Assembly: GCA_964548555.1 (NCBI GenBank)
Contig: CAZJSY010000001.1
Span: 18,905-82,904 of the forward strand
Source: an uncultured Burkholderiales bacterium
GTDB taxonomy: Bacteria; Actinomycetota; Acidimicrobiia; IMCC26256; JAMXLJ01
Length of the DNA stretch: 64,000 bases
Direction: 5' to 3'
The notes under the pieces were generated by a model. It did no database searches. It had not been told where the DNA came from and was given only the letters and a program-made list of their open reading frames with translations. Within the stretch, counting starts at the first letter, position 1. Each line of letters begins with the position of its first letter. Of the stretch, positions 1,645 through 50,211 are shown one piece after another. Made by a program: the position numbers and the translations under genes.

Positions 1645-1657
1645 CACGCAGTCGCGG

Positions 1658-2425: not shown

Positions 2426-2445
2426 GCCGGCGATTGTACGGCCCG

Positions 2446-2463
2446 TTGTACCGGTCGGTCCAA
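2446..2463. promoter_or_regulatory. Operator-like pseudo-palindrome TTGTACCGGTCGGTCCAA (site a), with an extra TTGTAC at 2434-2439
   Basis: Between the divergent aldolase (start 2425) and ACAD (start 2476). Shares the ACnGGTCGGTaCAA core with sites at 6385 and 8649. Confidence 0.6.
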
Positions 2464-2475
2464 TATGATCGGCCG

Positions 2476-3624: not shown

Positions 3625-3625
3625 G

Positions 3626-4210
3626 TTACGAGAACTCTCGGAGGCGGCGTCGACGCGCGGGCGTGAGCTCGCCGACCTCGTAGAGACCGCGGCGCACGCG
3701 GCGCGCGTAGCCGCGGTCGTGCTCGTAACCGAGCGCGTCGGCGAGCGTCTTGACCGGTGTGCGGCCTGCGATCGCGTAGCCGCCGACATGCAGCGCGCGG
3801 TGGATCTCGGGCAGCGTGAGCGGCTTTCGAGCCCGCACGAGCGTCGCGATGGCAGCGTGGCGAAGCGCTCGACCGCGGAGTTGGAGCGCCGGTGGTGCCG
3901 GCCGTCCGACGGGCGCCGGACCGCCGATACGGGGGCGACGGAATCCTCGCCATCCGCGCCCGTTGGATGCGGGCCAGAGAGTTTCGCGGAGACGAGCCAG
4001 TTCCGAGCGGATCGTCGCCATCCGTTGTCCCATGACCTGGAAGGCGGCATCGATCTCGCGGGCTTCCTCGATGAGCGCGGCACGGATTTGTTGGAGTTGC
4101 TCACGTCGTGACGGACGCAGCCTGAACGGACGCACGAGTCCTCCCCGTGATGACGGAACCGCGTCGGTGCGCGGAATCGGCGACGGGGGAAGCGACACCG
4201 GGGCGAGCAA
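3626..4210 (-). CDS. Hypothetical Arg-rich protein with possible C-terminal winged-helix segment
   Basis: 194-aa ORF with a coiled-coil-like middle (IRAALIEEAREIDAAFQVMGQRMATIRSELARLRE) and C-terminal LTLPEIHRAL..VKTLADALGY. Start uncertain and no family recognised. Confidence 0.4.
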   Translation of the reverse strand: MLAPVSLPPSPIPRTDAVPSSRGGLVRPFRLRPSRREQLQQIRAALIEEAREIDAAFQVMGQRMATIRSELARLRETLWPASNGRGWRGFRRPRIGGPAPVGRPAPPALQLRGRALRHAAIATLVRARKPLTLPEIHRALHVGGYAIAGRTPVKTLADALGYEHDRGYARRVRRGLYEVGELTPARRRRLREFS

Positions 4211-4381
4211 GGAGGCAGGCTCCGGCAGCGGTCTGAAACTACCGCCCCGCAGTGACAGTCATCTCGTACCTGTCGCGCCGAATCGATGGGCGGTTAGGCG
4301 CGACGGGTGCTAAGAGCGGGGGGGATATGGGCCGCGGGTGTTCGAGATCGGACAAGGTCGCCGCGCGACGCGCACCCCCCG

Positions 4382-6373
4382 CTAGACCGCCGCGAGGCGA
4401 CGGATCGCGGCGGCGATGTCCTGGCGGTCGGGGAGCCACGCGTGTTCGAGCTCGGGCGCGTAGGGAGGTGGCGTCGCGGCTGCGCCGACCCGTTCGATCG
4501 GCGCGTCGAGATCCCAGAACGCCTCGCGCGCGACCGTGGCCGCGATCTCCGCGCCGATGCCGAACGGAACGACGGCCTCGTGCGCGATCAACAGCCGGCT
4601 GGTCTTCCGGACCGAGTCCAGAATTGGAGCCATGTCGAGCGGAGCGACGGTCCGCAGGTCGATCACCTCGGCCGAGATGCCGTCGCCGGCCACGCGCTCG
4701 GCCGCGGCGATTGCCTCGTGGACCATCCGCGAGACCGACACCACGGTGACGTCGGACCCGCGACGCACGACCGCGGACTCGCCGATCGGCACGACGTAGT
4801 CGGTGGGCGGCTGAGGTCCCTTCATTCCGTAGAGCAGCCGGTTCTCGACGAAGACGACGGGGTTCGGGTCGCGGATCGCCGCCCGCAGCAGGCCGTAGGT
4901 GTCAGCAGGTGTCGAGGGCATCACGACGCTCAGGCCGGGTATGTGCGCGAGCAGCACCTCGAGGCTCTGCGAGTGCTGGCTCCCCGACGAGCGGCCCCCA
5001 CCGAACTGCGTTCGCACGGTCAGCGCCATCTCCGCGGCACCACCCGTCATGAACGGCAACTTCGCCGCCTGGTTGAGCAGCTGGTCGAAACAGACGCCGA
5101 GGAAGTCGAGATACATCAGCTCGACGACCGGGCGCATCCCCGCCATCGCCGCGCCGACGGCGAGACCCATGATCGCGGTCTCCGAGATCGGTGTGTCGCG
5201 GACGCGATCACCGAACAGATCCCGCAGCCCCCGCGTCAGTCCGAACACGTTTCCGCCTTCACCGACATCGATGCCCGCAACGAACACCCGCTCGTCGCCT
5301 GCCAGTTCCGCTTCGAGCGCGGTGCGGACCGCGTCCATGGTCCGGAACACCGGTGCGTCGTCACTCGGCGGCGGTTGTGTGGCGAGCGCCGGTCTCGTAC
5401 GGACGACGAAGTCGGTCAACGTCGCGGCTGCCGGGGCGGGTAGCCGTCGCGCGCCCTCCACTGCGTCGTCGAGCTCGTCGGCAACGGCCGACTCGAGTGC
5501 CTTGATCTCGTCGCCGTCGACGCCGGCGTTTCGGAGTCGACGTTCGTGCACGAGGATCGGGTCGCGCGCCTCCCACTCCCGTACTTCTTCGGGTGACCGG
5601 TAACGCTGTGGATCGCCTTCGTAGTGACCGTGCCAACGGTACGTCGCGGCCTCCACGACCGCGGGCCCGCGTCCGGCGCGCACGCCGGCGACGACGTCGC
5701 CCATGGCCGCTGCCGTTGCGGCGACGTCGTTGCCGTCGACTGCGATGTAGTCGATGCCGTAGCCCGCGGCCCGCTTCGCGAGCGACGCCCCATGCTGTGC
5801 CGACGACGGGGAGAACTCCGCGTAGCCGTTGTTCTCGCAGAAGAAGATCACCGGCAGCTGCCAAACTGCGGCGAGGTTCAGCGCTTCGTGGAACGCGCCC
5901 TGCGCAGGCGCGCCGTCGCCGAAGAACGCGACCGCGACGCTGCCGTCGGCGCGCAGCTGTGCGGCCGTCGCCGCTCCCGCCGCGATGGGCAGACCAGCGG
6001 CCACGATCCCGTTCGCGCCGAAGATCCCCAGCTTCGGATCGGCGATGTGCATCGATCCGCCACGCCCGCGGTTGGTGCCCTGGTCCTTGCCCATCAGCTC
6101 GGCGAACATCCCCAGCGGGTCCAGGCCCTTCGCCAGGCAGTGGCCGTGGCCGCGGTGCGTCGAGGTGATGACGTCCGTGGGCCGAAGCGGCCAGCACGCG
6201 CCTACGGCGGCCGCCTCCTGCCCGATCGACAGGTGCACGAAGCCCGGGACCTCGCCGTCGCGGTAGGAAGCGGCCACCCGCTGCTCGAAGCCCCTGATCA
6301 GCAGCATCCTCCGCTGCATCTCCACGAGCTCCGCCTCGGAGAACGCGGGTGTCGAGGGACGGTCGCCGGTCAC
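4382..6373 (-). CDS. TPP-dependent 2-oxoacid dehydrogenase E1 component, fused alpha/beta subunits
   Basis: The N-terminal half is E1-alpha-like (GFVHLSIGQEA, GGSMH, FFGDGA..NNGYA). The C-terminal half is E1-beta-like (DTPISETAIMG). Start is uncertain among GTG 6373, ATG 6415 and 6487. I chose 6373 because the operator-like motif at 6385-6402 would otherwise be coding. Confidence 0.85.
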   Translation of the reverse strand: MTGDRPSTPAFSEAELVEMQRRMLLIRGFEQRVAASYRDGEVPGFVHLSIGQEAAAVGACWPLRPTDVITSTHRGHGHCLAKGLDPLGMFAELMGKDQGTNRGRGGSMHIADPKLGIFGANGIVAAGLPIAAGAATAAQLRADGSVAVAFFGDGAPAQGAFHEALNLAAVWQLPVIFFCENNGYAEFSPSSAQHGASLAKRAAGYGIDYIAVDGNDVAATAAAMGDVVAGVRAGRGPAVVEAATYRWHGHYEGDPQRYRSPEEVREWEARDPILVHERRLRNAGVDGDEIKALESAVADELDDAVEGARRLPAPAAATLTDFVVRTRPALATQPPPSDDAPVFRTMDAVRTALEAELAGDERVFVAGIDVGEGGNVFGLTRGLRDLFGDRVRDTPISETAIMGLAVGAAMAGMRPVVELMYLDFLGVCFDQLLNQAAKLPFMTGGAAEMALTVRTQFGGGRSSGSQHSQSLEVLLAHIPGLSVVMPSTPADTYGLLRAAIRDPNPVVFVENRLLYGMKGPQPPTDYVVPIGESAVVRRGSDVTVVSVSRMVHEAIAAAERVAGDGISAEVIDLRTVAPLDMAPILDSVRKTSRLLIAHEAVVPFGIGAEIAATVAREAFWDLDAPIERVGAAATPPPYAPELEHAWLPDRQDIAAAIRRLAAV

Positions 6374-6384
6374 GGAGGATGTAT

Positions 6385-6402
6385 TGTACTGGTCGGTACA
6401 AA
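6385..6402. promoter_or_regulatory. Operator-like palindrome TTGTACTGGTCGGTACAA (site b)
   Basis: Perfect TTGTAC/GTACAA arms with a 6-nt spacer, between the divergent E1 and SDR genes. The minus-strand TACAAT -10 candidate overlaps the right arm. Confidence 0.6.
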
Positions 6403-6413
6403 GAGGGAAAGCC

Positions 6414-7193
6414 ATGGCCGATCCGATCGAGATCCCCGAGTCGTTCCCCGTGCCCGGTGCGGTCGCGGGGAAGCGCGTGGTGATCACCGGCGCCAGCCGC
6501 GGGCTCGGAACGTTGCTCGCGCACGCGTTCTCTCACGCCGGCGCGTCCGTTGCACTCGTGGCCCGAACGGAGAAGGACCTCAAGGCGGTGGCCGAAGTGC
6601 TTCCCGGGCGTTCCCTGGTCCTCAGCGGTGACGTGACCGACGAGGACTTCAACGAGGCCGTCGCGGACGCGACGGTCACCGAATGGGGCGGTGTCGACGT
6701 GTGGATCTGCAACGCGGGGATCTCGCCGATTCTGGCGGGGCCTCGCGAGACCGGCCCGTCGGTCTGGCGGAAGGTCCTCGAGGTGAACCTCACGGGCGCG
6801 TTCCTCGGGGCCCGCGCCGCCGCGCGCGTGATGCGCGAGAGGGGACGAGTGATCTTCACCGGATCGGTCCTCGGGGAGCGGCCCCGGGAAGGTCTGAGCG
6901 CGTACAGCGCCTCGAAGGCGGGTTTGGTGGGACTGGCCAAGGGGCTCGCGTTGGATCTGGCCCCGGCCGGTATCACCGTCAACGTGGTCGCCCCGGGGTG
7001 GTTCGATTCACCGCTGGCGGACGGGTGGAAGAACACACCGGAGCTCGCGACCACGATCACGGGGCACACCGCGCAACGACGTTGGGGAGCACCGACCGAC
7101 CTGGCCGGTGCGTATCAGTTCCTGGCGTCCGACGCGTCCGCGTTCATCACCGGCACCGTGCTGACCGTCGACGGCGGGTACTTACTCGTATGA
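6414..7193 (+). CDS. SDR family oxidoreductase
   Basis: ATG preceded by GAGGGA with a 5-nt spacer. VVITGASRGLG, NAG and YSASKAG motifs. Confidence 0.9.
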   Translation: MADPIEIPESFPVPGAVAGKRVVITGASRGLGTLLAHAFSHAGASVALVARTEKDLKAVAEVLPGRSLVLSGDVTDEDFNEAVADATVTEWGGVDVWICNAGISPILAGPRETGPSVWRKVLEVNLTGAFLGARAAARVMRERGRVIFTGSVLGERPREGLSAYSASKAGLVGLAKGLALDLAPAGITVNVVAPGWFDSPLADGWKNTPELATTITGHTAQRRWGAPTDLAGAYQFLASDASAFITGTVLTVDGGYLLV

Positions 7194-38377: not shown

Positions 38378-38394
38378 CTTACGATTTTCGAAAC
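38378..38394. repeat. AT-rich 17-mer CTTACGATTTTCGAAAC, copy 1
   Basis: Exact copy of 49425-49441. Contains the TTTCGAAA palindrome and a TACGAT hexamer. Lies in the GT2-operon / OYE divergent promoter. Confidence 0.8.
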
Positions 38395-38474
38395 TCGCAC
38401 GCGCGGGGACCCGCGGAGATTCGGCGTGAGCGCCGGCGTTCGACGGGACACCGGGAATGTGAGAGAACTACACG

Positions 38475-39728
38475 ATGACTTCGACGTCGCATCCCCCGCA
38501 TCCCTTCTCGCCGGGCAGGCTCGGCCCTCTGATGCTGCGCAACCGGATGATCAAGGCTGCGACGTTCGAGGGCATGGCGCCTCGTCACGTCGTCACCGAC
38601 GCGTTGATCGATTACCACCGCGCCGTTGCCGAAGGCGGTGTTGCCATGACCACGCTCGCGTACTGCGCAGTCGGTGAAGACGGTCAGGGCGCGCCGGGTG
38701 AGATCCTCATGACCGAGGACGCAGTGGCGGGGCTGCGACGGTTCACGGACGCGATCCACGAGACGGGGGCGGCCGCGTCGATCCAGCTGGGTCATGCGGG
38801 CCCCGTCGCAGCGGGCACCGGACACCAGGGCCTCGCGCCCTCGAAGGTCTTCGCGCCGCAGGCCCTGCGGTTCACGCGCGCGGTGACCGAAGAGGACCTC
38901 GCGCGCATCACGAACGACTTCGCGCGCGCAGGCCGGCTCGCCGTGGAGGCCGGATTCGACGCCCTCGAACTGCACTTCGGGCACGGTTATCTCGTCAGCG
39001 CGTTCCTCAGCCCCAAACTGAACAAGCGAACCGACCGGTGGGGCGGGTCGATTCAGAACCGCGCTCGGCTCGCACGCAACATCGCGACCGCCGTTCGCGA
39101 GGCCGTCGGCTCCGAGGTCGCGGTGCTCGCGAAGCTCAACATGGCCGACGGGGTCATGGGTGGACTCTGGCTCGACGAGAGCATCGTCGCGGCACGACTG
39201 CTCGAGGCGGACGGCGCGCTCGACGCGCTGGAGCTCACCGGCGGTAGCTCGTTCCAGAACCCCATGTATCTGTTTCGTGGCGAGGCCCCGATCGCCGAGA
39301 TGGCCGTGGCGTTCCCGCCTCCGCTCCGTCTCGGGTTCAAGCTCACCGCGAAGCGGTTCATGCCCGAGTATCCCTTCGAGGAGGCGTACTTCCTCCAGTA
39401 CGCGCGACAGTTCCGCGAGGCGCTCGACATGCCGTTGGTCCTGCTCGGCGGTGTGACGCGGTTCGAGACGGTCGAACGCGCGCTGGCGGAGGGCTTCGCG
39501 TTCGTCGCCATGGGACGTGCGTTACTGCGCGAACCCGATCTCATCCAGCGGTGGGAGAAGGGTGACACCACGGAGTCGCTGTGCGTGCACTGCAACAAGT
39601 GCATGCCGACCATCTATTCGGGGACGCACTGCGTGCTGGTGGCGCCCGAGCGCCGTCCGGGTGTCTCGCTGCTGGCCGCGGCCCGGGGAACCCGGCCGAG
39701 GCGAGATCGACACGCTGAGCGTTTGTAG
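38475..39728 (+). CDS. NADH:flavin oxidoreductase (Old Yellow Enzyme / 2,4-dienoyl-CoA-reductase N-domain family)
   Basis: LRNRMIKAATFEGM N-terminus, HFGHGYLVSAFLSP active-site region and RWGGSIQNRARL. Confidence 0.85.
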   Translation: MTSTSHPPHPFSPGRLGPLMLRNRMIKAATFEGMAPRHVVTDALIDYHRAVAEGGVAMTTLAYCAVGEDGQGAPGEILMTEDAVAGLRRFTDAIHETGAAASIQLGHAGPVAAGTGHQGLAPSKVFAPQALRFTRAVTEEDLARITNDFARAGRLAVEAGFDALELHFGHGYLVSAFLSPKLNKRTDRWGGSIQNRARLARNIATAVREAVGSEVAVLAKLNMADGVMGGLWLDESIVAARLLEADGALDALELTGGSSFQNPMYLFRGEAPIAEMAVAFPPPLRLGFKLTAKRFMPEYPFEEAYFLQYARQFREALDMPLVLLGGVTRFETVERALAEGFAFVAMGRALLREPDLIQRWEKGDTTESLCVHCNKCMPTIYSGTHCVLVAPERRPGVSLLAAARGTRPRRDRHAERL

Positions 39729-39772
39729 CGTCCACTACGAGGACATACTGGGGGGTGTAGTATTCGCTACAA
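39723..39772 (+). other. Extended imperfect hairpin, or tandem TGTAG-N6-CTAC sites
   Basis: TTGTAGCG (39723-30) pairs with CGCTACAA (39765-72). Inner ACTAC (39734-38) pairs with GTAGT (39757-61), leaving an 18-nt loop. The OYE stop codon TAG lies inside the stem. The element is 42 nt upstream of the membrane-protein gene. Confidence 0.5.
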
Positions 39773-39813
39773 GTACCCGGATCGCCGTCATACGCTGACG
39801 AAAGGAGCGGCGG

Positions 39814-40560
39814 ATGCATGCCGTGCTGCTCGCCTCGGCAGCGTTCCTGGCCTCCGCCGTCGAGATGGTGGAGGCGCTGACCATCGTCCTCGCCGTCGGC
39901 GTCACGCGGGGATGGCGCTCCGCGTCCTTCGGAGTGGTCAGTGCTCTCGCGGCGTTGACGCTCGTTGTGGCCGCCCTCGGCCCGGCGCTCACCCACATTC
40001 CCATCGATGCACTGCGGCTCCTCGTCGGCGGCGTGTTGCTGGTGTTCGGGCTGCAGTGGTTGCGCAAGGCGATCCTGCGTGCCGGTGGTGTCAAGGATCT
40101 TCACGACGAGGACGCCATCTATCAGGCCGAGGTCGCGTTGCTGCGAGCGCAGGGCGCGCGGGTGGCGCACGACTGGTACGCCTTCACGCTCGCCTTCAAG
40201 GGCGTGTTCCTCGAAGGTCTCGAGGTGGCGTTCATCATCGTGACGTTCGGGAGCGCACAACATCAGGTCGGCCTGGCCGCCATCGGCGCCGTCAGCGCGC
40301 TCGTCGTCGTGCTCATCGCAGGGATCATCGTGCACCGGCCGCTCGCGCGGGTTCCGGAGAACTCGCTCAAGTTCGGCGTCGGCGTGATGCTGAGCGCGTT
40401 CGGCATCTTCTGGAGCGCAGAGGGTGCGGGCGCGAAATGGCCCGGAAGTGACGCGGCCATTCTTGGTCTGATCGCCTGCATTCTCGCGGTGTCGTTCGGC
40501 TTGATCGCGCGGCTGCGTTCGCGTCCGGACCGCCCGCAACACGTAGGAGCGCTGTCATGA
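39814..40560 (+). CDS. Polytopic membrane protein (COG4280-like), function unknown
   Basis: ATG 6 nt after AAAGGAG. Two repeated hydrophobic halves, each with an acidic E-x-x-E-like motif (AVEMVEALTIVLA and FLEGLEVAFIIVT). Confidence 0.7.
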   Translation: MHAVLLASAAFLASAVEMVEALTIVLAVGVTRGWRSASFGVVSALAALTLVVAALGPALTHIPIDALRLLVGGVLLVFGLQWLRKAILRAGGVKDLHDEDAIYQAEVALLRAQGARVAHDWYAFTLAFKGVFLEGLEVAFIIVTFGSAQHQVGLAAIGAVSALVVVLIAGIIVHRPLARVPENSLKFGVGVMLSAFGIFWSAEGAGAKWPGSDAAILGLIACILAVSFGLIARLRSRPDRPQHVGALS

Positions 40561-40760
40561 CGAAGTTTCGGCGCTTCGGCCGCTTCTGGTACGACTTCCT
40601 CCTCGGCGACGATTGGACGGTCGCGGTCGCCGTCGTGTTCGCACTCGGCGCGACGGCGGCGCTGGCGCAGGCCGGAAGCACCGCATGGTTCGTCATGCCC
40701 CTCGCGGTGTTCGGGATCTTGAGCCTTTCCGTGTACCGAGCCGTCCGCTCGCGACCCTGA
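40557..40760 (+). CDS. Small 2-TM membrane protein, hypothetical
   Basis: ATGA overlap with the upstream stop. 67 aa with two hydrophobic helices. Confidence 0.55.
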   Translation: MTKFRRFGRFWYDFLLGDDWTVAVAVVFALGATAALAQAGSTAWFVMPLAVFGILSLSVYRAVRSRP

Positions 40761-40781
40761 CCGTCGAGGCACCGGTCCGAC

Positions 40782-41660
40782 ATGTCGCACAGGTCGCCTG
40801 AGGACTCGCTCGCGCAACGGGTCGTAGCGCTCGGCGCGCAACTGTCGCCCGCCGAACGACGGGTCGCGGAATACCTGCTCGAGGCTCCACCCGAGGAGCT
40901 CCTGCTGTCGGCGGCCGGTCTCGCCGAGCGGCTCTCGACGAGCGACGCGACCGTCGTTCGCACCGCGAAGGCGCTCGGGTACGGCGGGCTCGCAGAGCTT
41001 CGCCGCGCCGTGGCGGCCCGAGACAACGAGCCGCCGCTCGCGGAACGGCTGCGTAGGACGCTGGCCGAGACGCCACCCGACGAGTTGTTGGGTGCCAGCA
41101 TCGCGAACCACCTCGCCGCGCTCGGCACGCTCACCCGACACGTCACCCCCGAGCTGTTCCAGCACGCGGTCGACCTGCTCGCGTCCAGTGCGCGAGTCGT
41201 GTGGCGGGGTGTGGGCCCGTCCGCTCATCTCGCCGCGTACGGGGAGTTCCTCTGCCGCAGGATCGGAAGGCCGAGCGGCGCGCTGGTGCACACCGGCACC
41301 TCGTTCGCCGACGAGCTGCTCGACATCCGCCGCGGGGATGCCGTGGTCGCGCTCGCGTACGGACGCCTGCAACCGCACGTCCGTCTGCTTGCTGATCGGG
41401 CCGACACTCTGCAGGTTCCGGTGCTGCTCGTGACCGACGCAGTGGGCCACCGCTTGCGCGACCGGGTCGCGGTCACCCTCCCGACAGGGCGTGGGTCGCC
41501 GGGACTCTTCGCGAGCCACGGCACGACGCTTCTCCTGATCGAGGGTCTCGTCCTGGGGCTCGCCGCGGCCGACGAACCGGCGGCCGAGGCAAGCCTCGCC
41601 ATGCTCAACGACCTGCGCGCCGAGCTCACCGGTCGGCGCATCGATGTGGACTCGTCGTAG
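40782..41660 (+). CDS. MurR/RpiR family transcriptional regulator (HTH + SIS domain)
   Basis: N-terminal HTH_6-like LSPAERRVAEYLL...SDATVVRTAKALGYGG and a C-terminal SIS-like region. Confidence 0.85.
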   Translation: MSHRSPEDSLAQRVVALGAQLSPAERRVAEYLLEAPPEELLLSAAGLAERLSTSDATVVRTAKALGYGGLAELRRAVAARDNEPPLAERLRRTLAETPPDELLGASIANHLAALGTLTRHVTPELFQHAVDLLASSARVVWRGVGPSAHLAAYGEFLCRRIGRPSGALVHTGTSFADELLDIRRGDAVVALAYGRLQPHVRLLADRADTLQVPVLLVTDAVGHRLRDRVAVTLPTGRGSPGLFASHGTTLLLIEGLVLGLAAADEPAAEASLAMLNDLRAELTGRRIDVDSS

Positions 41661-41765
41661 CGCGGTCGCTCCGATGCCAGATGCTGCAGCTGCATAGAGA
41701 CACCGGCCGAACGCAAGTCGTGGTGTACCGCCACCAGGCATTGACAGCGCGGTGACACTCTTCGC

Positions 41766-43484
41766 ATGGAGCTGCTCGCAGCCCCATTGGGCAGGATGAA
41801 ATCGCACTACGACGTGATCGTCATCGGGTCCGGATACGGGGGTGGGATCGCGGCGTCTCGCCTCGCGCGTGATCGCCGCTCCGTCTGCGTGCTGGAGCGG
41901 GGTCAAGAGCGGCCGCCGGGGGACCACCCCGAGACGCTCCGGGACGCGATGCGACAAGTCCAACTGCGCGCCGGGCGCCGCCAGATCGGTCCGCTCGACG
42001 CGCTGTTCGACTTCCGCGCCGGTGAAGACATCAACGTGCTGGTCGGTTGCGCCCTCGGAGGAACATCGATCATCAACGCCAACGTCGCGATGAAGCCCGA
42101 CCGGCGGATCTTCGACGAGCGTTGGCCGGCCGCCTTGCGCCGTCGCAAGGATCCGCTGTTGCAGGAGGGTTACCGCGCCGCTCAAGAGATGTTGGGATCA
42201 AGGCGCTATCCGTCGAGCTGGCAGCCACTGAAGAAGCTCGAGGCGCTCGATGCGTCCGCCGTCGGGCTGGGCATCCACGCCAAGAGACCGAAGATCAACG
42301 TCACCTTCACGGCCGGCAAGAACAAGGCCGGGAAGCACCAGGAAGCATGCACGCTGTGCGGCAACTGCGTCTCGGGCTGCAACGAAGGAGCGAAGAACAC
42401 GGTGCTCGCGACGTATCTGTACGACGCGCACAGACACGGCGCCGAGATCTTCACCGAATGCGAGGTTTGGACGGTGAGCCCTCGCAAGAAGGGCGGCTGG
42501 ACGGTCGAGTTCCGGTCTGGAGCGGCAGGCAGGGATCGCTTCGAGGCGCCGAACCAGTTCGTCACCGGCGACGTCGTCGTGCTCGCGGCGGGCACCCTGG
42601 GGTCTACCGAGATCCTGCTGCGGTCGCAGCGGGCCGGCCTTCGTACGTCCGAGATGCTCGGTCAGAACTTCTCCGCCAACGGCGACGTCATCGGCTTCGC
42701 GTTCGACAGCCAAACTGTCGCGAACGGCATCGGACGGCGCCGTCGCCAACCCGCAGCCGATCCGGCAGGGCCGTGCATCACGGGCGTCATCCATGTCGAC
42801 GATCCGGTGCACGTCAAGGACGAGCTCGTGATCGAGGATGCGGTCCTGCCGGGTCTGTTTGCTTCCGTACTGCCGGCGGCCTTCTCACTCGCCGCGATCT
42901 TGGTGCGGCAGAACGGACACGGCCAGAACCGAACCCTGGTAAGCGAGCTGACCCGCGCGGTGAAAACCGTGGTCGGCGGCGCGTATCGAGGCGTCATGCG
43001 CAACAGCCAGAGCTATCTGGTGATGAGCAGCGACGACGCGCGCGGTCACTTGGCGCTTGACGGCGATCGGGTCGCCGTACGTTGGCACGGTGCAGGTATC
43101 CGTCCGCCATACGCGCGCGACAACGGCATCCTCGAGCGTGCTGCCCGCGGCATCGGCGGCGAGTACATACCCGATCCACTGTGGATGCGCCGTAAGCACT
43201 CGCTGATCACGGTGCACCCCCTCGGTGGCTGCGTCATGGCGGACGACGCGACGCGCGGCGTCGTCGACAACCGCGGGCGGGTGTACTCCCGCACATGGGG
43301 GAAGACGTTCTACGACGGCCTCTATGTCGCGGACGGTTCGATCGTTCCGAGCGCGCTCGGCGTGAACCCCTTGTTGACAATCTCCGCGCTCGCGGAGCGC
43401 ATCTGCACCTTGCTCATTCAGGAAGATCGGTGGGGACGAAGGAATGCGCACAAGCGGAAGCAGAGGCGCGAGCACGGGAGTTGA
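41766..43484 (+). CDS. GMC-family FAD oxidoreductase (cholesterol-oxidase-like)
   Basis: YDVIVIGSGYGGGIAASRLA FAD motif and C-terminal HPLGGCVM..GLYVADGS. Start may be 41799 (MKSHYD). Confidence 0.85.
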   Translation: MELLAAPLGRMKSHYDVIVIGSGYGGGIAASRLARDRRSVCVLERGQERPPGDHPETLRDAMRQVQLRAGRRQIGPLDALFDFRAGEDINVLVGCALGGTSIINANVAMKPDRRIFDERWPAALRRRKDPLLQEGYRAAQEMLGSRRYPSSWQPLKKLEALDASAVGLGIHAKRPKINVTFTAGKNKAGKHQEACTLCGNCVSGCNEGAKNTVLATYLYDAHRHGAEIFTECEVWTVSPRKKGGWTVEFRSGAAGRDRFEAPNQFVTGDVVVLAAGTLGSTEILLRSQRAGLRTSEMLGQNFSANGDVIGFAFDSQTVANGIGRRRRQPAADPAGPCITGVIHVDDPVHVKDELVIEDAVLPGLFASVLPAAFSLAAILVRQNGHGQNRTLVSELTRAVKTVVGGAYRGVMRNSQSYLVMSSDDARGHLALDGDRVAVRWHGAGIRPPYARDNGILERAARGIGGEYIPDPLWMRRKHSLITVHPLGGCVMADDATRGVVDNRGRVYSRTWGKTFYDGLYVADGSIVPSALGVNPLLTISALAERICTLLIQEDRWGRRNAHKRKQRREHGS

Positions 43485-45213
43485 CGGCCGCCCGGGGCTG
43501 CAGTTCACGGAACGGATGTCGGGGTTCTTCTCAGTTGGGATCACTGACGACTATGAGCGTGGCTTCGACCAGGGCAGAGACGACGGCTCGCTGATCGAGT
43601 TCGTCGTGACGATCGACGTGCCGGACCTCGACGCGCTCGTGTCCCATCCGGAGCGGCCCGTCAGGCTGACCGGAACGGTCTTGGCGCCGGCCCTGTCGCC
43701 CCATCGATTCACCATCGTTGATGGCCGGTTCACGCTGTTCGCGCCGGACGCGGACCGGGTCGAGACTCTCGACATGAAGTACTCGATGCGGCTCGTAGCC
43801 GCGGACGGCTCGGTCTACCACCTCGAGGGCTTCAAGCCGTTGTCGTACGGCAGCGCGCTCCGCGCCTGGAGCGCGACCACGACGCTGTACACGCGCATCA
43901 TGCACGGGGACCGAACCATCGGTGTGGGAATTCTGCATCTGGGTGTCGAAGACCTCCTCCGTCAGCTGCAGACGCTGCGCGTGACGAGGGCCCGCTCGAG
44001 GCGCGAGGCAAGCCGCAAGCTCCGCTCGTTCGTCGCGCTGTTCAGCGGCACACTCGTACGCGCGTATTCCGGGGTTTTCGGTGTCGGCCATGCCTTCGAC
44101 GAGACTCAGCCAGCCGCCCAGCGCCGCCTTCGTCTGCCGCGGCCGGAAGTGATCTGGTGCGGACACGACAATCAGTGGCGCCACCACCGTGACGACGGAT
44201 CGTGGCTTCGACTGACGCACTACCCGGGTGGCCCCAAGGGACCCGTGATGCTGGCGCCCGGCTTCGGCATGACGACATCGGCTTACATCGCGACGACGAT
44301 CGACACGAACCTGGCCGAGTACCTCCACCGCAACCAGTACGACGTCTGGCTGTTCGACTACAGGGCGAGCCCCGACCTTCCGAGCGCGTTGCGCGACTTC
44401 ACGCTCGACGATATCGCCGACAAGGACTGGCCGGCTGGTGTACGCGAGGTGCGCCTGCGCACAGGCCGCGACGTTCAAGTGTTCGCTCACTGTGCCGGAT
44501 CGATGACATTCCTGATGGCCGTGCTCCACGGTATGACGGGTGTGTGCTCTGCGGTCTGCTCGCAGGTCACGACCCACCCGGTGATGACGTGGTTCAGTAG
44601 GTTCAAGGCCGAGATCCGCCTCGGACGCCTCCTCCAGGGATTCGGGCTCCGGACCATCTCACCGATTCTCCAGAAGACCTTCGGCGACGAGGTGCTCGAC
44701 GTCGTCCTCCGCCTCGCTCCCGTCCCACGAGGCGAGCGCTGTGGCAACGCCGTGTGCCACTGGGTGTTCGCGATGTACGGACCCACGCACCGGCACGCGC
44801 AACTGAACGAGGCAACGCACCGCGCGCTGGCTGAAATGTTCGGTGTCGGAGATCTGCATGCGCTCGATCACATTGCGTTGATCGCGCGGAAGCGTCACGC
44901 CGTCGATCACCGGGGTCGCGACGTCTATCTGCCCCATGTGCGGCGCCTCGCCTTTCCGATCATGTTCCTCGCGGGTCAACACAACCGGATCTTTCTTCCC
45001 AAGACGTCGAAGCGGACCTACGACTGGTTGCAAGCGAACAATGCCCCGTCGCTCTATACACGCGAGGTCCTGGACGAATACGCACATCTCGACGGCATCG
45101 TCGGCAAGCATGCGGTACGCGACGTGTACCCGAAGATTCGCGCGCACCTCGATCGGACCCAACCTCCACACCGGCACCGCGATGCCGCCCGGGCGAGCGT
45201 CAGGCCGAGCTGA
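43444..45213 (+). CDS. Alpha/beta-hydrolase-fold protein with N-terminal beta-rich extension
   Basis: Overlaps the upstream gene by 41 nt in another frame. HCAGS-type nucleophile elbow (FAHCAGSM). Start is ambiguous between 43444 and 43516. Confidence 0.7.
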   Translation: MRTSGSRGASTGVDGRPGLQFTERMSGFFSVGITDDYERGFDQGRDDGSLIEFVVTIDVPDLDALVSHPERPVRLTGTVLAPALSPHRFTIVDGRFTLFAPDADRVETLDMKYSMRLVAADGSVYHLEGFKPLSYGSALRAWSATTTLYTRIMHGDRTIGVGILHLGVEDLLRQLQTLRVTRARSRREASRKLRSFVALFSGTLVRAYSGVFGVGHAFDETQPAAQRRLRLPRPEVIWCGHDNQWRHHRDDGSWLRLTHYPGGPKGPVMLAPGFGMTTSAYIATTIDTNLAEYLHRNQYDVWLFDYRASPDLPSALRDFTLDDIADKDWPAGVREVRLRTGRDVQVFAHCAGSMTFLMAVLHGMTGVCSAVCSQVTTHPVMTWFSRFKAEIRLGRLLQGFGLRTISPILQKTFGDEVLDVVLRLAPVPRGERCGNAVCHWVFAMYGPTHRHAQLNEATHRALAEMFGVGDLHALDHIALIARKRHAVDHRGRDVYLPHVRRLAFPIMFLAGQHNRIFLPKTSKRTYDWLQANNAPSLYTREVLDEYAHLDGIVGKHAVRDVYPKIRAHLDRTQPPHRHRDAARASVRPS

Positions 45214-48200
45214 GCAGCTCGCGCGCACGCTGCTCGATGCCCGCGGCACCCACTGCGCTGGCACCCCGGAGCGCATGCTCCGCGAGCGCGACGGCGCGTG
45301 CCGTGGACCGGGAGTCGCCCCGCCTCGAGAGCATCTCGGCCCAAGCGAGCTCCGTTCGCGCCACCCAGACCGGAGCACCCATCCGCTCGTGTGTCGCGAG
45401 CGCGGCGGCGAAGTGGCGCTCGGCGTCGTCGAGCCGTTCGGACGTCGCAGCGCAGAGCGCCAACGCCAGCTGCACCCCGCCGAACACGTGGGCACCCGTG
45501 AACGCGATCTGATCGGCCCACGGAGTAAGCCGCTTGTAGAGCAACGCCGCTGCGTCACCGTGCTGCAGGCGCGCGCTGACGACCGACCATTCGATCATCG
45601 TCGCGAGCCATGTCTGGTCGTACGGAATGCTCCCGAATCGATCCGAGTATCCGAGATCGAGGAGCTCTGCTGCGTAGTCGTCGTGGCCGATCTCGACGTA
45701 TGTCATCGCGAGCGAACCCATGAACGCCGGGAGTCCCGGGTTTTCCGCTACCGCGCGACTGACGACACCCTCGAGCTCCTGGAGGCGGCCCTGGTCGTAG
45801 CGGATCAGGAAGATCTGGCCGGCGTACACCGCCCACGCATCAGGCTGACCGCTGCTCGTTCCGATCTCGAGCGCGAGCGACGCCAGCTCCTCCGCTTCCC
45901 AAAGGTGTCCGCCGAGCAACGCACGCCATGCCGAGTGCAGCGCGGCCTCCCATCGCAGCACGGGAAGACCGAGCTGGCCGGCAATGGCACGTAAACGGTC
46001 GAGGTGATCGTCGGCTTCGGCGATGTCGGCGGCGCTGAGAGTCGCGACCATGCGGTACATCGACGCCCAGAACAACGGGACGGGGTCACCGACGCGCTCC
46101 GCGAGTGACAGGTTCTCCGCCGTGTTCTCCAAACGCTCCCCGAGTGTGTCGGGTACCCAGATGGTGTTGGGCCGCCGGGTCAGCACATACGACAGCGTTT
46201 CCAGGTCGGCGACGCGACGGGCGATGGCGAGCGCCTCGTCGCTGAGGGCCAGCCTTCGCTGCCAGTCGCCCGAGTAGCTCAGCTCGGCGGCGAGCGTCGA
46301 CAACAGGCGAGCCCGCGCCGGGCTGTCATCCGGTCCGACCGCCGTGACTGCAGCCTCCAGGACGGCGACCCGTTCGAGGTCGACTGCACCTGCCGCGCTC
46401 GCCCACCCGCGCGTGTTCGTGAGCGCGGCATGGACGAGGAGCTCGTCGTCGCCGACGTCGCTCGCGTGCGCCGCCGCGCTGAGCAGCGTGTCCCGATAGG
46501 CGGGATCGCCGGCTTGGCGTTGCGCGTCTCCGAGCAGGATCTCGAGCTTGACGCGTTCCCGATCGGGTTCGTTGGGAGCGGTCCCACGATCGAGAAGCCG
46601 CAAGCCGTGCTCGAACCAGCGTCGTGCGTCCTGGGGCGCGAGTCGCTCGAGCGCGTGCTCACCCGCGCGACGTGCGTAGTCGAGCGCACGCGGATCGGGC
46701 GCCGTCGGATCGGCGAGGAACCAATGATGTGCCAGCTCGGCCATGCGATCGCCGAGACCCAGATCGGGCCGGCGCTCCATCACCTCCGCGACCTGGCGGT
46801 GGATCCGCCGGCGGCGAGTGGTGCTGATCTCCTCGTACAGGGTTTGCTGCATGATCGCGTGCACGAATCCGAAGCAACCCGCGCGGTCCAGCGTTTCGGT
46901 GACGATCGACGCTTCGCTCGCGAGCTCGAGGATCTCGAGGAGCGCGTCCTCCGTCTCGCCCGACACCTCCGACAGGAGCGCGAGGTTGAACGCCCGACCG
47001 ATCACCGCGGCGACCGTCAGGACACGCGGCGCTTGTCCGCCGAGGCGCCTGACACGGCGGCTGACGACGTCGCGGACACTTTGGGGTACGTCGAGCTCGG
47101 CACGGGTGCCCAGCGGATCGGCATTGGAATCGAGCATCGTGCCCGACTCGGTCATGTTGCGCACCAGCTCGCCGACGAAGAAGGGGTTGCCACCCGTCTC
47201 CTCGCGCAGCACGTCGGCATGTCGCTTCAGCTGCGCGGCGCCGAGCTCAACGCCGACGGCGTGCAACAACTGCTCCACCGCATCCTTGTCGAGTCCCGCC
47301 AACCGCATGCGTCGGACGTTCGGCACGCCGCGCATGTCGGCGAGGAAGTCGACGACCCGATCGGCCGCGAAGAGGTCGGTCTCGCGGAACGTTCCCACGA
47401 GGAGCAGCCGCATCTGCGGCGCGGCCGTCACGATGTGCTCGAGGAGGAGCAGCGTGGGCTCGTCGGCCCAGTGCAGGTCGTCGAGCACGAGCACGACCGG
47501 TCGATCCTGCGCGCACTGATCGAGCAACGACACGACGGCACGGAAGAGCAGGAAACGCTCCACTTCGGGGTCGCGCGCGGGCACCGCATCGGTGTGCGGA
47601 CCCGCCGGCTGCGACGGCAGGAGGCGGAGAAGCTCGGGACCGGCGTGCTCGGCCCAGCGTTCACGCTGTTCTCGTGGCGCGGTCGCGAACAGCTCCTCGA
47701 GCGCGTCGACGAATGGTTGGTACGGCACGAGGGCGAGCTCGTTGCAGTGCCCGTAGAGGACGAGTGCGTCATCGTCCCAGAGGCGTTGGGCTGCCACCGC
47801 GACGAGCTGGGTCTTTCCGATGCCCGGTTCTCCGGCGACGAGCACGGCTTGCGCGGTTCCATTTCGCGCCTCGTCGAATGCCTGGAGCAGGAACGTGAGC
47901 TCTTCGCCGCGGTTGACGAACGGACGGTCGACCAGACGCGCGAGTGCCTGGGGGAACGCGACGGCGTGGGGCGGCTCGGGGACCCCGCCGGCCGGCGTGT
48001 CGACAGGGGCGGGACGAACCTCGAACACCAGCTCGGGGCGGGCCAGATCCTTCAACACGCGGCTGCCGAGGTCCTCGAGGACGATCTCGGTGGGGAGGTG
48101 ATCACGAACGAGCTCCGCGGTCGAGCCCGAGATGAGCACCTGTCCGCCCGCGGCGGCGGCACGCAGACGGGCGGCGCGATTCACGGCCGGCCCGAAATAG

Positions 48201-49294
48201 TCGTCGTTGCGCTCGATGGCCTCACCGGTGTGCACGGCGACACGGATCTGCACCGGGGTTTCCTCGGGCCAGGGCTCCGTCGCGAACCGTTGCTGCACCT
48301 CGAATGCCGCCGCTACGGCGTCGGTTGCCCGTTGGAAGACGGAGAACGTGCTGTCGCCTTCGCCGCGGGATTTCAACAGGACACCGTCGTGCTCGTCCAT
48401 GATTTCGCGGATGAGCTCGTCGTGTCGCGTGAGCGCGGACGCCATCGACCGCGGCGCGCGATCCCATGAGCGCGTCGATCCTTCGACATCCGTCAAGAGG
48501 AACGACACGATCCCGCTCGGCGGACGCACTGCTTCTCTCGATCGCGTGGGCGGCCGCGGTCGGTCCAACGCGGCGTCCTGCTCGAGAATCATCCGCTCGA
48601 GCTTTGTGATGTCGGCGCTGGGCTGGATACCCAGCTCGTCGAGCAGCGTCGCCCGCAACCGGCTACAGATGTGCAATGCGTCGGCTTGGCGGCCGCTGGC
48701 GTAGAGGGCGAGCATGAGCTGACTCGCGAGACGCTCGCGCAGCGGATGTTCGGCGACGAGTACCTCGAGCTCGGGAACGATGTCGCGGTGCCGCTCGCGC
48801 TCCAGCTCGGCATCGAAGAGCGTCTCCAATGCCCAGAGGCGCAACCCCTCGAGCCGGACGGCTGCGGCGTGCCCCTGTGCCACATGGGCTACATCGGCCA
48901 GCAGCGGACCGCGCCACAACGACAATGCTTCACGAAGCCGCGCCGCAACAGCGGCCGGTGGAAGCTCCGCTTTGCCGACTTCGTTCACCGCGGCTTCGAA
49001 CCGGAGGCTGTCGAGCGCCTCGGGCGGCACCTCGAGCACGTAGCCCGAGCCGCGGGTCACGATCATCCCCGGATCGAGGAGAGCACGCAGCTGGTGGACA
49101 TAACCCTGCAGGGTGCTCTGCGCCGAGGCCGGCGGCTGCTTTTCCCACAAGTCGTGAACGAGGTGGTCGGCCGCCACGAACGAGTTCGCGTCGAGCAGCA
49201 GCCGGGCGAGCACGCTCCGCCGCTTCATGCCGCGGACATCGACGGCCCTGCCGTCGCGCCGGATTTCGAGTGGACCCAGGATGCCGAACCTCAT
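45200..49294 (-). CDS. Multidomain regulator: SARP (OmpR-type wHTH + BTAD) - class III adenylate/guanylate cyclase - STAND/AAA ATPase - TPR-like repeats
   Basis: MRFGILGPLEI SARP N-terminus, with the ATG 49294 preceded by GAGGTGG. BTAD region (LWRGPLLADV). Cyclase motifs FLLTDVEGST, GEGDSTFSVF and GPAVNRAARL. P-loop VAGEPGIGKT. Long helical-repeat C-terminus. Confidence 0.85.
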   Translation of the reverse strand: MRFGILGPLEIRRDGRAVDVRGMKRRSVLARLLLDANSFVAADHLVHDLWEKQPPASAQSTLQGYVHQLRALLDPGMIVTRGSGYVLEVPPEALDSLRFEAAVNEVGKAELPPAAVAARLREALSLWRGPLLADVAHVAQGHAAAVRLEGLRLWALETLFDAELERERHRDIVPELEVLVAEHPLRERLASQLMLALYASGRQADALHICSRLRATLLDELGIQPSADITKLERMILEQDAALDRPRPPTRSREAVRPPSGIVSFLLTDVEGSTRSWDRAPRSMASALTRHDELIREIMDEHDGVLLKSRGEGDSTFSVFQRATDAVAAAFEVQQRFATEPWPEETPVQIRVAVHTGEAIERNDDYFGPAVNRAARLRAAAAGGQVLISGSTAELVRDHLPTEIVLEDLGSRVLKDLARPELVFEVRPAPVDTPAGGVPEPPHAVAFPQALARLVDRPFVNRGEELTFLLQAFDEARNGTAQAVLVAGEPGIGKTQLVAVAAQRLWDDDALVLYGHCNELALVPYQPFVDALEELFATAPREQRERWAEHAGPELLRLLPSQPAGPHTDAVPARDPEVERFLLFRAVVSLLDQCAQDRPVVLVLDDLHWADEPTLLLLEHIVTAAPQMRLLLVGTFRETDLFAADRVVDFLADMRGVPNVRRMRLAGLDKDAVEQLLHAVGVELGAAQLKRHADVLREETGGNPFFVGELVRNMTESGTMLDSNADPLGTRAELDVPQSVRDVVSRRVRRLGGQAPRVLTVAAVIGRAFNLALLSEVSGETEDALLEILELASEASIVTETLDRAGCFGFVHAIMQQTLYEEISTTRRRRIHRQVAEVMERRPDLGLGDRMAELAHHWFLADPTAPDPRALDYARRAGEHALERLAPQDARRWFEHGLRLLDRGTAPNEPDRERVKLEILLGDAQRQAGDPAYRDTLLSAAAHASDVGDDELLVHAALTNTRGWASAAGAVDLERVAVLEAAVTAVGPDDSPARARLLSTLAAELSYSGDWQRRLALSDEALAIARRVADLETLSYVLTRRPNTIWVPDTLGERLENTAENLSLAERVGDPVPLFWASMYRMVATLSAADIAEADDHLDRLRAIAGQLGLPVLRWEAALHSAWRALLGGHLWEAEELASLALEIGTSSGQPDAWAVYAGQIFLIRYDQGRLQELEGVVSRAVAENPGLPAFMGSLAMTYVEIGHDDYAAELLDLGYSDRFGSIPYDQTWLATMIEWSVVSARLQHGDAAALLYKRLTPWADQIAFTGAHVFGGVQLALALCAATSERLDDAERHFAAALATHERMGAPVWVARTELAWAEMLSRRGDSRSTARAVALAEHALRGASAVGAAGIEQRARELLSSA

Positions 49295-49424
49295 GCCCAC
49301 CTCGCGGCTGCGTCCCTGGTTCCCGGCTTCGCTCGTGCGGACGCGAGATTAAGCCCCAACTGCGTCGAGCGCTCTCCCAATTTCTCTCTCTTGCCGAAGA
49401 GCGAGGAGGCGGTCAGCTCGTCGC

Positions 49425-49441
49425 CTTACGATTTTCGAAAC
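49425..49441. repeat. AT-rich 17-mer CTTACGATTTTCGAAAC, copy 2
   Basis: Exact copy of 38378-38394. Lies in the SARP-cyclase / response-regulator divergent promoter. Confidence 0.8.
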
Positions 49442-49491
49442 CCCGACATGCGCCTGAAACACCGGCGGGAGTCGCATATACAGTCAAAATC

Positions 49492-50211
49492 GTGAGCGCC
49501 ACCGAGGACGGTGCCGAGGTCAACGGTCGGGCGCACGTGCTCGTGGTGGAAGACGACCCGAACGTTGCCGAGGTTCTGGTCCGGTATCTCGAGCGTGAGG
49601 GTTTCGAGACCGCGGCCGTGGTCGACGGCTACGCGGCGCTGGCAAGAGCGGAGGAACGGCCACCCGACATCGTGGTACTCGATCTGATGCTGCCGGGACT
49701 CGACGGTCTCGAGGTGTGCCGGCGCCTCCGCGCGAGCACCCCCGTCCCCGTGATCATGCTCACCGCGCGCGGCGAGGAGGATGATCGGATCGTCGGCCTG
49801 GAAGTAGGGGCAGACGACTATGTGACCAAGCCGTTCTCGCCACGCGAGCTGACCGCGCGCGTGAAGGCCGTGCTGCGGCGGGCCACGACTCCGGCGGTTA
49901 GCGGCGGCAGCCGTGAAGTGCTCGTCGCCGGTGACCTCGTCGTCGACTCGGCATCACACGAGGTGCGGCATCGGGGCGAGGTCGTCGCACTGACTGCGCG
50001 TGAATTCGACCTGTTGCGCTTCCTCGCGCGGAGGCCTCGACACGTGTTCCGCCGGGAGGAGCTCCTCGAGCACGTGTGGGGTTATACGTACGGCGACGCG
50101 TCAACCGTGACGGTGCACATCCGCCGGCTGCGCGAGAAGCTCGAAGACGATCCGTCGGCTCCGGTGCACATCACGACGGTGTGGGGCGTGGGGTACCGGT
50201 TCGACCCATGA
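49492..50211 (+). CDS. OmpR/PhoB-family response regulator
   Basis: GTG start. VLVVEDDP..VVLDLMLPGLDG receiver and a C-terminal TVWGVGYRF winged helix. Confidence 0.9.
   Translation: MSATEDGAEVNGRAHVLVVEDDPNVAEVLVRYLEREGFETAAVVDGYAALARAEERPPDIVVLDLMLPGLDGLEVCRRLRASTPVPVIMLTARGEEDDRIVGLEVGADDYVTKPFSPRELTARVKAVLRRATTPAVSGGSREVLVAGDLVVDSASHEVRHRGEVVALTAREFDLLRFLARRPRHVFRREELLEHVWGYTYGDASTVTVHIRRLREKLEDDPSAPVHITTVWGVGYRFDP

Follow-up and report, generated by a model that had tools for sequence, protein, structure and literature searches.

The stretch of DNA analyzed here, referred to below as the window, comprises 64,000 nucleotides of a metagenome-assembled genome (MAG) from an uncultured member of the Acidimicrobiia (assembly GCA_964548555.1, contig CAZJSY010000001.1, positions 18,905 to 82,904 of the forward strand). 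It carries on its minus strand a gene, called here the SARP-cyclase gene, for a protein of 1364 aa in which a SARP head precedes a class III nucleotide cyclase homology domain, a P-loop NTPase of the STAND type and a long helical, TPR-like sensor region. The open reading frame (ORF) is unbroken from the ATG at 49294 (MRFG...) to the stop codon at 45200-45202, and a GTG at 49300, two codons upstream of the ATG, provides an alternative start giving 1366 aa. The gene is divergent from a two-component operon encoding an OmpR-type response regulator (GTG at 49492) and a histidine kinase, as stated in the first-pass annotation of the window, which was made from the sequence alone. At the other end, its 3' end and that of a convergent alpha/beta-hydrolase gene overlap by 14 nt (45200-45213). 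The coordinates of the features discussed are given in Table 1.

Table 1. Features of the SARP-cyclase gene and of the surrounding block (positions in the window; AF2, AlphaFold2 model).
Feature	Position	Strand	Basis or remark
SARP-cyclase-STAND-TPR regulator, whole gene, 1364 aa	45200..49294	-	Intact ORF; Pfam and NCBIfam domains
SARP head, residues 1-250 (OmpR-type winged helix 24-87, BTAD 94-237)	48545..49294	-	Pfam; AfsR/EmbR alignment
Class III cyclase homology domain, residues 261-430	48005..48514	-	Pfam, Ma1120 alignment, AF2, Foldseek, conservation
Family hairpin R310-G-E-G-D-S315, two residues longer than the K-x-x-G-D loop	48350..48367	-	119/120 homologs; AF2
AAA_16-type STAND P-loop NTPase, residues 458-633	47396..47923	-	Pfam, motifs, Foldseek
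Winged-helix/arm and helical TPR-like sensor region, residues 634-1364	45203..47395	-	AF2; TIGR03903; no GerE
197-nt spacer to the divergent response-regulator gene, with the gene's own promoter region	49295..49491	.	Repeat scans
17-mer copy 1, repeat at the left boundary, flanked by the GT2 operon start and the OYE gene	38378..38394	+	
17-mer copy 2 (CTTACGATTTTCGAAAC), repeat at the right boundary; this is the ancestral element that lies upstream of the response regulator	49425..49441	+	
11,047-bp block	38395..49441	.	Absent from this site in three congeners

The N-terminal part of the protein shows the features of the SARP family, namely an OmpR-type winged helix and then a BTAD domain. BTAD was identified with Pfam with an E-value of 1.7e-36, and the Trans_reg_C match to the winged helix scored 24.8 bits, just below the cut-off of 26.2; the winged helix is nevertheless secure, since the structures of AfsR (8hvr, 8jke, 8k60) and EmbR (2fez) align to residues 1-250 with E-values of 4e-40 to 2e-34. 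The Guanylate_cyc match at residues 261-397 reached 42.5 bits against a cut-off of 21.9, and the cyclase motifs are located at residues 265-270 (FLLTDV), 311-314 (GEGD), and 371-376 (VNRAAR). Pro-rich linkers of 20 and 30 residues separate this domain from the BTAD and from the ATPase, respectively. The latter was identified as AAA_16 (E 4e-31); Walker A (GEPGIGKT, 488-495) and Walker B (VLVLDD, 601-606) are both intact, and the features of a STAND NTPase are present, with the P-loop domain being followed by helical and winged-helix domains and by a repeat sensor. This repeat part is about 730 aa long, its Pfam matches to TPR are weak, and in the AF2 model it is all-helical from approximately residue 826. 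No GerE/LuxR domain was found in the protein with Pfam, and the C-terminus consists entirely of helical repeats in the AF2 model. The Pfam and structure alignments confirm the order of the domains read in the first-pass annotation, and the lack of a LuxR tail and the single uninterrupted frame are likewise borne out; the motifs which it quoted (metal Asp, Asn/Arg, and P-loop) are all present in the translation, and the position which it gave for the cyclase (nt 48011-48514) agrees with that in Table 1.

The kind of protein to which these domains belong had been described in the first-pass annotation as a hybrid of the AfsR and Rv0386 types, with a cyclase spliced into an AfsR body. The combination of a SARP with an Rv0386-like module was right in spirit; the AfsR body was not. 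Full-length AfsR (8k60) aligns to residues 1-250 only, no match to NB-ARC (PF00931) was obtained in the protein with Pfam, the ATPase being of the AAA_16 type instead, and AfsR is absent from the top 50 Foldseek matches of the STAND part. The NCBIfam model TIGR03903 (kinase/cyclase fusion) aligns to residues 328-1123, and a paralog in the same genome (C286), in which Pfam detects the cyclase and AAA_16, is 43% identical over residues 262-1362; to judge from these alignments, the part extending from the cyclase to the C-terminus is a single evolutionary block. Since AfsR aligns to the head alone, NB-ARC is absent, and the cyclase-to-C-terminus part forms one block, the most fitting description of the protein is a cyclase-AAA_16-TPR module preceded by a SARP head, rather than an AfsR with an inserted cyclase, and membership of the AfsR type was rejected.

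The AF2 model of residues 440-1364 (predicted local distance difference test, pLDDT, 91.2; predicted TM score, pTM, 0.78) has its best Foldseek matches in 6mfv (STAND-TPR), Avs3, CED-4, MalT (8bob), and Apaf-1. The closest published class is that of the SARP-LAL regulators (PimR, SanG, FilR, PteR; LAL denoting the LuxR family's large ATP-binding regulators), here with the cyclase domain kept. Proteins with a SARP, an AAA_16, and TPRs were also met with in a 9-Mb actinomycete genome (30% identity to the STAND part over about 700 aa) and in a congener (1178 aa, 31% identity over residues 459-1357). The bacterium's own genome encodes about 20 cyclase domains and 17 cyclic nucleotide (cNMP)-binding domains, and the modules appear there in several combinations: cyclase-AAA_16 (C286, C41), BTAD-AAA_16 (C51), and cyclase-NB-ARC (C77 by Pfam, and C17 as judged by eye from the motifs GVGGVGKT and VVDNCEH), in addition to an AAA_16 with a LuxR-like tail, likewise read by eye (C36). 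One further paralog (C200) lies about 3 kb from two cNMP-binding genes.

The residues characteristic of class III cyclases are present: D269, D314 (or E312), K308 (or R310), D365, N372, and R376. In the cyclase domains of 119 homologs, which are only about 50% identical to the query domain, D269, G311-E312-G313-D314, D365, N372, R373, and R376 either do not vary or show a conservation of at least 97%, and K308 is conserved in at least 90%. The best sequence match of the domain is the adenylyl cyclase Ma1120 (E 5e-18). The residue alignment for substrate specificity suggested in the first-pass annotation was run against this protein, and the adenine-specifying K/D/A triad of Ma1120, as defined from the Protein Data Bank entries of its 'KDA to EGY' specificity mutant (5d0g and 5d0h), was found to align with K308, D365, and A375, which predicts ATP as the substrate. 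For residues 252-443, the AF2 model (pLDDT 93.9) superposes best on Ma1120 with ATP analogues (Foldseek TM 0.88-0.94), followed by further cyclases with proven adenylyl cyclase activity; Rv1900c, CyaC, and Rv1264 are among the matches. A degenerate cyclase was considered and rejected, the catalytic set being conserved across the 119 homologs. Since the full catalytic set appears to be under family-wide purifying selection, catalysis by this domain is likely.

The loop carrying the second metal ligand differs from the canonical one: it reads K-S-R-G-E-G-D-S, whereas the canonical form is K-x-x-G-D. The first-pass annotation had taken the metal-binding motifs to be intact, and D269 and D314 are indeed present, but GEGDS departs from the canonical loop, the hairpin being two residues longer. 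In the AF2 model, E312 and D314 are both placed in the hairpin between the strands 304-309 and 316-320. GEGD is present in 119 of the 120 best homologs. Its distribution was analyzed in 80 species-representative loci with related cyclase domains: in-frame SARP fusions were found at 20 of the 31 loci with GEGD, vs. two of the 49 loci without it. The GEGD hairpin marks the SARP-cyclase subfamily, yet it is not exclusive to the fusions.

This architecture is widespread. All the best 120 hits in a 5.8-billion-protein collection carry the same set of Pfam domains (120/120; 44-53% identity), 115 of them having a Walker A-type and 101 a Walker B-type motif, and among 300 evenly sampled genomes of the phylum, at least 31 contain a match spanning both the SARP and the cyclase. 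The carriers include Mycobacterium colombiense, M. kyorinense, M. neglectum, and Mycolicibacterium elephantis DSM 44368, as well as MAGs of Solirubrobacterales and Acidimicrobiia. In the cultured strain M. elephantis DSM 44368, the homolog is located on NZ_ATDN01000001.1 (range 1249-6785). In the source databases, the hits are named 'BTAD domain-containing putative transcriptional regulator' or 'DNA-binding SARP family transcriptional activator/class 3 adenylate cyclase/predicted ATPase.' The literature search, the reach of which did not extend to a 2004 survey of actinobacterial cyclases (PMC2447327), yielded no paper describing or testing a SARP-cyclase fusion. The order of domains, the rarity of which the first-pass annotation had proposed to assess, is thus common and already labeled by automatic annotation, and no characterized member was found. 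Some members of the family are much larger: 11 homologs (P0009, P0013, P0014, P0022, P0025, P0028, P0030, P0034, P0041, P0054, and P0056) have lengths of 2240-2283 aa, the first STAND ATPase and repeat module being followed by another complete one, as seen in the sequence of P0041. At the loci L029, L030, and L031 (genus g76, complete genomes of 5-6 Mb), the SARP-cyclase matches lie within open frames of 3201-4152 aa, which may be either giant proteins or stop-free frames of high-GC DNA; the upstream regions of these three loci have in common three CTTGACC-like repeats with an 11-nt period.

SARPs bind direct heptamer repeats set one helical turn apart at the promoters of their targets. As to binding sites of the SARP heads, seven of 12 homolog loci show significant direct repeats with a period of 10-12 nt in the 250 nt preceding their own start (repeats as good were obtained in no more than 6 of 300 shuffles), and an eighth carries the same repeat motif at 17/300 shuffles. 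The motif (G)CTGGAG recurs in four of the homolog loci, one of which has three copies of GCTGGAGGGTC; the repeats at other loci are GCGATTACCG in two copies, a CTTGACC type, and CAGTTGCAC in two copies. These repeats argue that the SARP heads of the family bind DNA, and by analogy they fit the heptamer binding of PimR. The CTGGAG-N5-CTGGAG box of the homologs is absent from the whole genome of the present bacterium. The recognition helix also differs, reading QGYVHQLRA here vs. QTYVSQLRK in the homologs with this box. The sigma-70 consensus scan of the 49295..49491 spacer gave no match, and nothing above chance was found in the search for a SARP box at the gene's own promoter, in the spacers of the block in which the gene lies (Table 1), or in the window as a whole. 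At another locus, a perfect direct repeat with an 11-nt period, CCCCAACGTG in two copies (G000:C143:4771-4792, L073), precedes a small NifU-like gene by 57-78 nt. The sequence GTTGGGG(C) is common to this repeat and to the region upstream of the SARP-cyclase gene (49353-49364); this 7-mer match, which is not significant, serves as a lead only.

The neighborhoods of six homologs were also compared. At two of these loci (P0036 and P0044; L064 4849-5898 and L065 4845-5903), the SARP-cyclase gene is divergent from a gene of about 350 aa encoding a cNMP-binding domain and an acyltransferase (FeeM/Acetyltransf_5). This protein is reminiscent of the cyclic AMP (cAMP)-gated mycobacterial acetyltransferase. 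The pairing of a writer with a reader at these two loci favors an active cyclase.

Class III cyclases have their active sites across the dimer interface and are active only as dimers. In AfsR, the SARP binds as a side-by-side dimer to repeats overlapping the -35 element, and its nucleotide-binding oligomerization domain (NOD), together with its TPRs, inhibits the SARP, an inhibition which is relieved by ATP binding (PMC10936776). In the most economical model, by analogy with AfsR and MalT, the helical TPR-like sensor and the STAND ATPase of the present protein might keep it off until ligand and ATP binding permit self-association. The latter would place two SARP heads next to each other on direct repeats close to a promoter, where they would recruit RNA polymerase, and would at the same time pair two cyclase domains, giving cAMP as a second, diffusible output; since class III cyclases need dimers and self-association would supply the dimer, the activated regulator would also make cAMP. 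What was observed here is the architecture, together with catalytic and Walker residues that are intact and conserved throughout the family and, in the models, the adenylyl-cyclase-like and STAND folds; the catalysis, the use of ATP, and the coupling of DNA binding to cyclase activation are the steps which we infer. On balance, the gene is probably a member of a widespread, uncharacterized family of signal-switched activators composed of a SARP head on a cyclase-AAA_16-TPR body. We put forward more tentatively, as a possibility which is rather less probable, that the protein is a transcription factor emitting a second messenger: either the self-association of the STAND part or the docking of the SARP heads on DNA would dimerize the cyclases, cAMP synthesis would be confined to periods in which the regulator is switched on or bound to its promoter, and local transcription would be accompanied by a cell-wide signal, which the 17 cNMP-binding proteins encoded in the genome would be available to read.

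Several results weigh against the signal-switched activator with an active cyclase. Because the GEGD hairpin is longer, it is ambiguous whether E312 or D314 is the second metal ligand and whether K308 or R310 takes the place of the substrate lysine. Relatives with a degenerate cyclase domain exist among the SARP-cyclase fusions (the lysine is missing at L032, for example), and the paralog C286 has lost the catalytic Asn, showing VVEAAR in place of VNRAAR. No significant SARP-type direct repeat was found at the gene's own promoter, where 72 of 300 and 305 of 500 shuffles do as well, and no exact 9-mer repeated with a period of 11 or 22 nt occurs in the whole window. Lastly, the gene neighborhoods are not conserved among the six homologs.

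The cyclase might be a pseudo-enzyme that acts, between SARP head and STAND switch, as a module for dimerization or for the sensing of nucleotides, in a protein which would be only a transcription activator. The deviant metal-binding loop and the degenerate domains of the relatives speak for this explanation, as does the fact that the published SARP-LAL regulators function without any cyclase domain (PMC3367932). However, the retention of the catalytic positions and of the adenine triad in 119 homologs at about 50% identity is hard to explain without selection for catalysis, the nearest fold is that of an active adenylyl cyclase, and cNMP-reader genes adjoin two of the homologs. We consider a pseudo-enzyme unlikely, although it is an alternative to be taken seriously, and we prefer the signal-switched activator with a catalytic cyclase.

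The 17-mer CTTACGATTTTCGAAAC occurs exactly at 38378 and 49425, where 0.01 copies would be expected by chance, and the 4.7-Mb assembly contains no further exact copy. In three congeners belonging to the same genus, it is found once, with 0-1 mismatch, in a spacer of about 115 nt between divergent operons, one beginning with a glycosyltransferase family 2 (GT2) gene and the other encoding the response regulator and kinase. In the window, the GT2 start at 38331 is 47 nt from the first copy and the second copy is 51 nt from the regulator GTG (47+17+51 = 115), and the flanks, when joined at one copy of the 17-mer, align colinearly with the spacer of the congeners; it follows that the 11,047 bp constitute an indel with a 17-bp direct repeat at its boundaries. 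Since the gene lies in this accessory block, its adjacency to the two-component operon is a by-product of the insertion.

The block contains genes for an old yellow enzyme (OYE) reductase, a membrane protein, an RpiR regulator, a glucose-methanol-choline (GMC) oxidoreductase, and the alpha/beta hydrolase, as well as the SARP-cyclase gene. No ortholog of the latter was found in the three congeners, where the best match (46%) covers the SARP head only, and the GMC/hydrolase part was not found in them at the DNA level; the OYE and membrane-protein genes are located elsewhere in the congeners, the OYE gene of the block being 80% identical in DNA to that of one of them. No integrase, transposase, or other mobility genes are present among the ORFs called in the block, and the GC content is uniform across its junctions. 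If the block were closed into a circle at the 17-mer, the SARP-cyclase gene and the OYE operon would be divergent across 227 nt. A divergent layout is usual for a SARP and its target, and such a circle would be the form expected from a Campbell-type integration at the 17-mer. There is a loose parallel in the congener G303 (L074 1598-5131 and 8007-9158), where an OYE ortholog (84% aa identity) lies 2.9 kb from the divergent gene for the 1178-aa SARP, AAA_16, and TPR protein without a cyclase mentioned above. This hints that, within the genus, large SARPs and this OYE gene are paired repeatedly.

The 17-mer is also conserved in two further families of the order, where it adjoins other genes, and it is probably an operator of the ancestral spacer between the GT2 and regulator genes rather than a SARP site. 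The possibility that it is a SARP operator shared by two operons was rejected as the main explanation, since the congeners have a single copy of the element, in their GT2/response-regulator spacer. The element shows no 11-nt periodicity, and its only palindrome, the 8-bp TTTCGAAA, is lost in the variants of the congeners. The sequence TACAGT (49479-49484), which lies 7 nt before the response regulator GTG and is kept in all three congeners, looks like the -10 box of a leaderless mRNA, in which case the 17-mer would span roughly -67 to -51. Between the first 11 nt of this element and the region around the start codon of the response regulator, the complementarity is 91% (49425-49435 vs. 49486-49496; hairpin of -27.3 kcal/mol, z -2.06); an RNA hairpin masking this start is a weak proposal and is probably irrelevant if the transcript is leaderless, as TACAGT suggests, since the 17-mer would then be excluded from the mRNA. 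A near-copy of the 17-mer with two mismatches (G000:C90:415-431, L003) lies 45 nt upstream of a twin-arginine molybdoenzyme-like gene, which by eye resembles MsrP or a sulfite oxidase. By analogy with HprSR and msrPQ in E. coli, the 17-mer may be the operator of the adjacent two-component system.

The reading proposed in the first-pass annotation, in which an AfsR-type regulator with an inserted cyclase would be tied by the shared 17-mer to the divergent two-component operon and to the operon at 38.3 kb, can be weighed in the light of these data. The order of the domains does resemble that of AfsR plus a cyclase, and the 17-mer is exact, improbable by chance, and situated within both divergent promoter regions. 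The AfsR part of this reading is largely refuted by the AAA_16 ATPase and by the failure of AfsR to align beyond the head or to appear among the 50 best structural matches of the STAND part. As regards the 17-mer, the two exact copies are real, but they are not evidence of co-regulation with the operon at 38.3 kb: they are the boundaries of the indel, given that the three congeners have one copy and no ortholog of the gene, that the flanks joined at one copy are colinear with the congeners' spacer, and that the motif occurs in two other families of the order without this arrangement. On the whole, this reading seems improbable. An artefact of assembly, with a chimeric join at the 17-mer bringing in a gene foreign to the locus, might be suspected in a MAG of 536 contigs with an estimated contamination of 5.9% and with both junctions lying exactly at a repeated sequence, but it is highly improbable, as 17 bases are fewer than the usual word sizes of assemblers, which makes a double misjoin unlikely, the DNA identity of the OYE gene to that of a congener points to a block native to the genus, and the GC content is uniform across the junctions.

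As an individual finding, the gene is modest, its architecture being common. Its contribution is mainly the conserved GEGD hairpin, the reading of the substrate triad, and, as the new local fact, the insertion of an 11-kb block exactly at a conserved 17-bp regulatory element, which corrects the inference of co-regulation. Should the cyclase prove to be active and to be gated by the STAND part, the family would link promoter-specific activation by a SARP with global cAMP signaling; many soil Actinomycetota would be concerned, as would cultured non-tuberculous mycobacteria, which are open to genetics. This would also suggest an origin for the SARP-LAL regulators PimR and SanG, whose noted 'homology to guanylate cyclases' might be the remnant of a cyclase-bearing ancestor.

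Among the systems already named, Ma1120 of Mycobacterium avium (4wp3, 4wp8, 4wp9, and 5d0e) has the same K/D/A triad as the present cyclase; it is a stand-alone cyclase with the canonical K-S-Q-G-D, whereas the present domain reads K-S-R-G-E-G-D and is part of a 1364-aa regulator. The SARP head of AfsR of Streptomyces coelicolor (SARP-NOD-TPR) is about 40% similar to the present one (E 4e-40 over residues 1-250), and the two proteins share an overall logic, in which a STAND switch governs a SARP; AfsR differs, however, in having an NOD of the NB-ARC type, with no alignment past residue 250 here, and in having no cyclase domain. In the Mclx proteins Rv0386, Rv1358, and Rv2488c (cyclase-AAA/NB-ARC-TPR-LuxR), as in the present protein, a class III cyclase directly precedes a STAND ATPase and repeats, and a DNA-binding domain is carried in the same chain (PMC4452763). 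This domain is a C-terminal LuxR helix-turn-helix (HTH) in the Mclx proteins, whereas it is an N-terminal SARP here. Castro and co-workers are said to have found in 2005 that Rv0386 uses Gln and Asn as its substrate residues. Set against this pair, the present protein has the Lys/Asp/Ala triad and the GEGD hairpin. The SARP-LAL regulators of Streptomyces (PimR, SanG, FilR, PteR, and ScnRI) likewise consist of a SARP followed by an AAA_16/LAL ATPase and TPRs, without a C-terminal LuxR HTH (PMC10972967; PMC3367932). The class has been described as lacking the cyclase (N-terminal signature) region (PMC3367932), and such a region is found here at residues 261-430: proteins of the PimR class have no cyclase catalytic domain and pass from BTAD to the P-loop within about 45 residues, whereas a complete cyclase domain of 170 residues lies between the two in the present protein. 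Unlike the SARP-LAL genes, the present gene is located outside any antibiotic gene cluster. PimR binds to heptamer repeats in the spacer which it shares with a divergent regulator gene (PMC3367932), and these repeats resemble those with an 11-nt period upstream of the homologs of the present protein.

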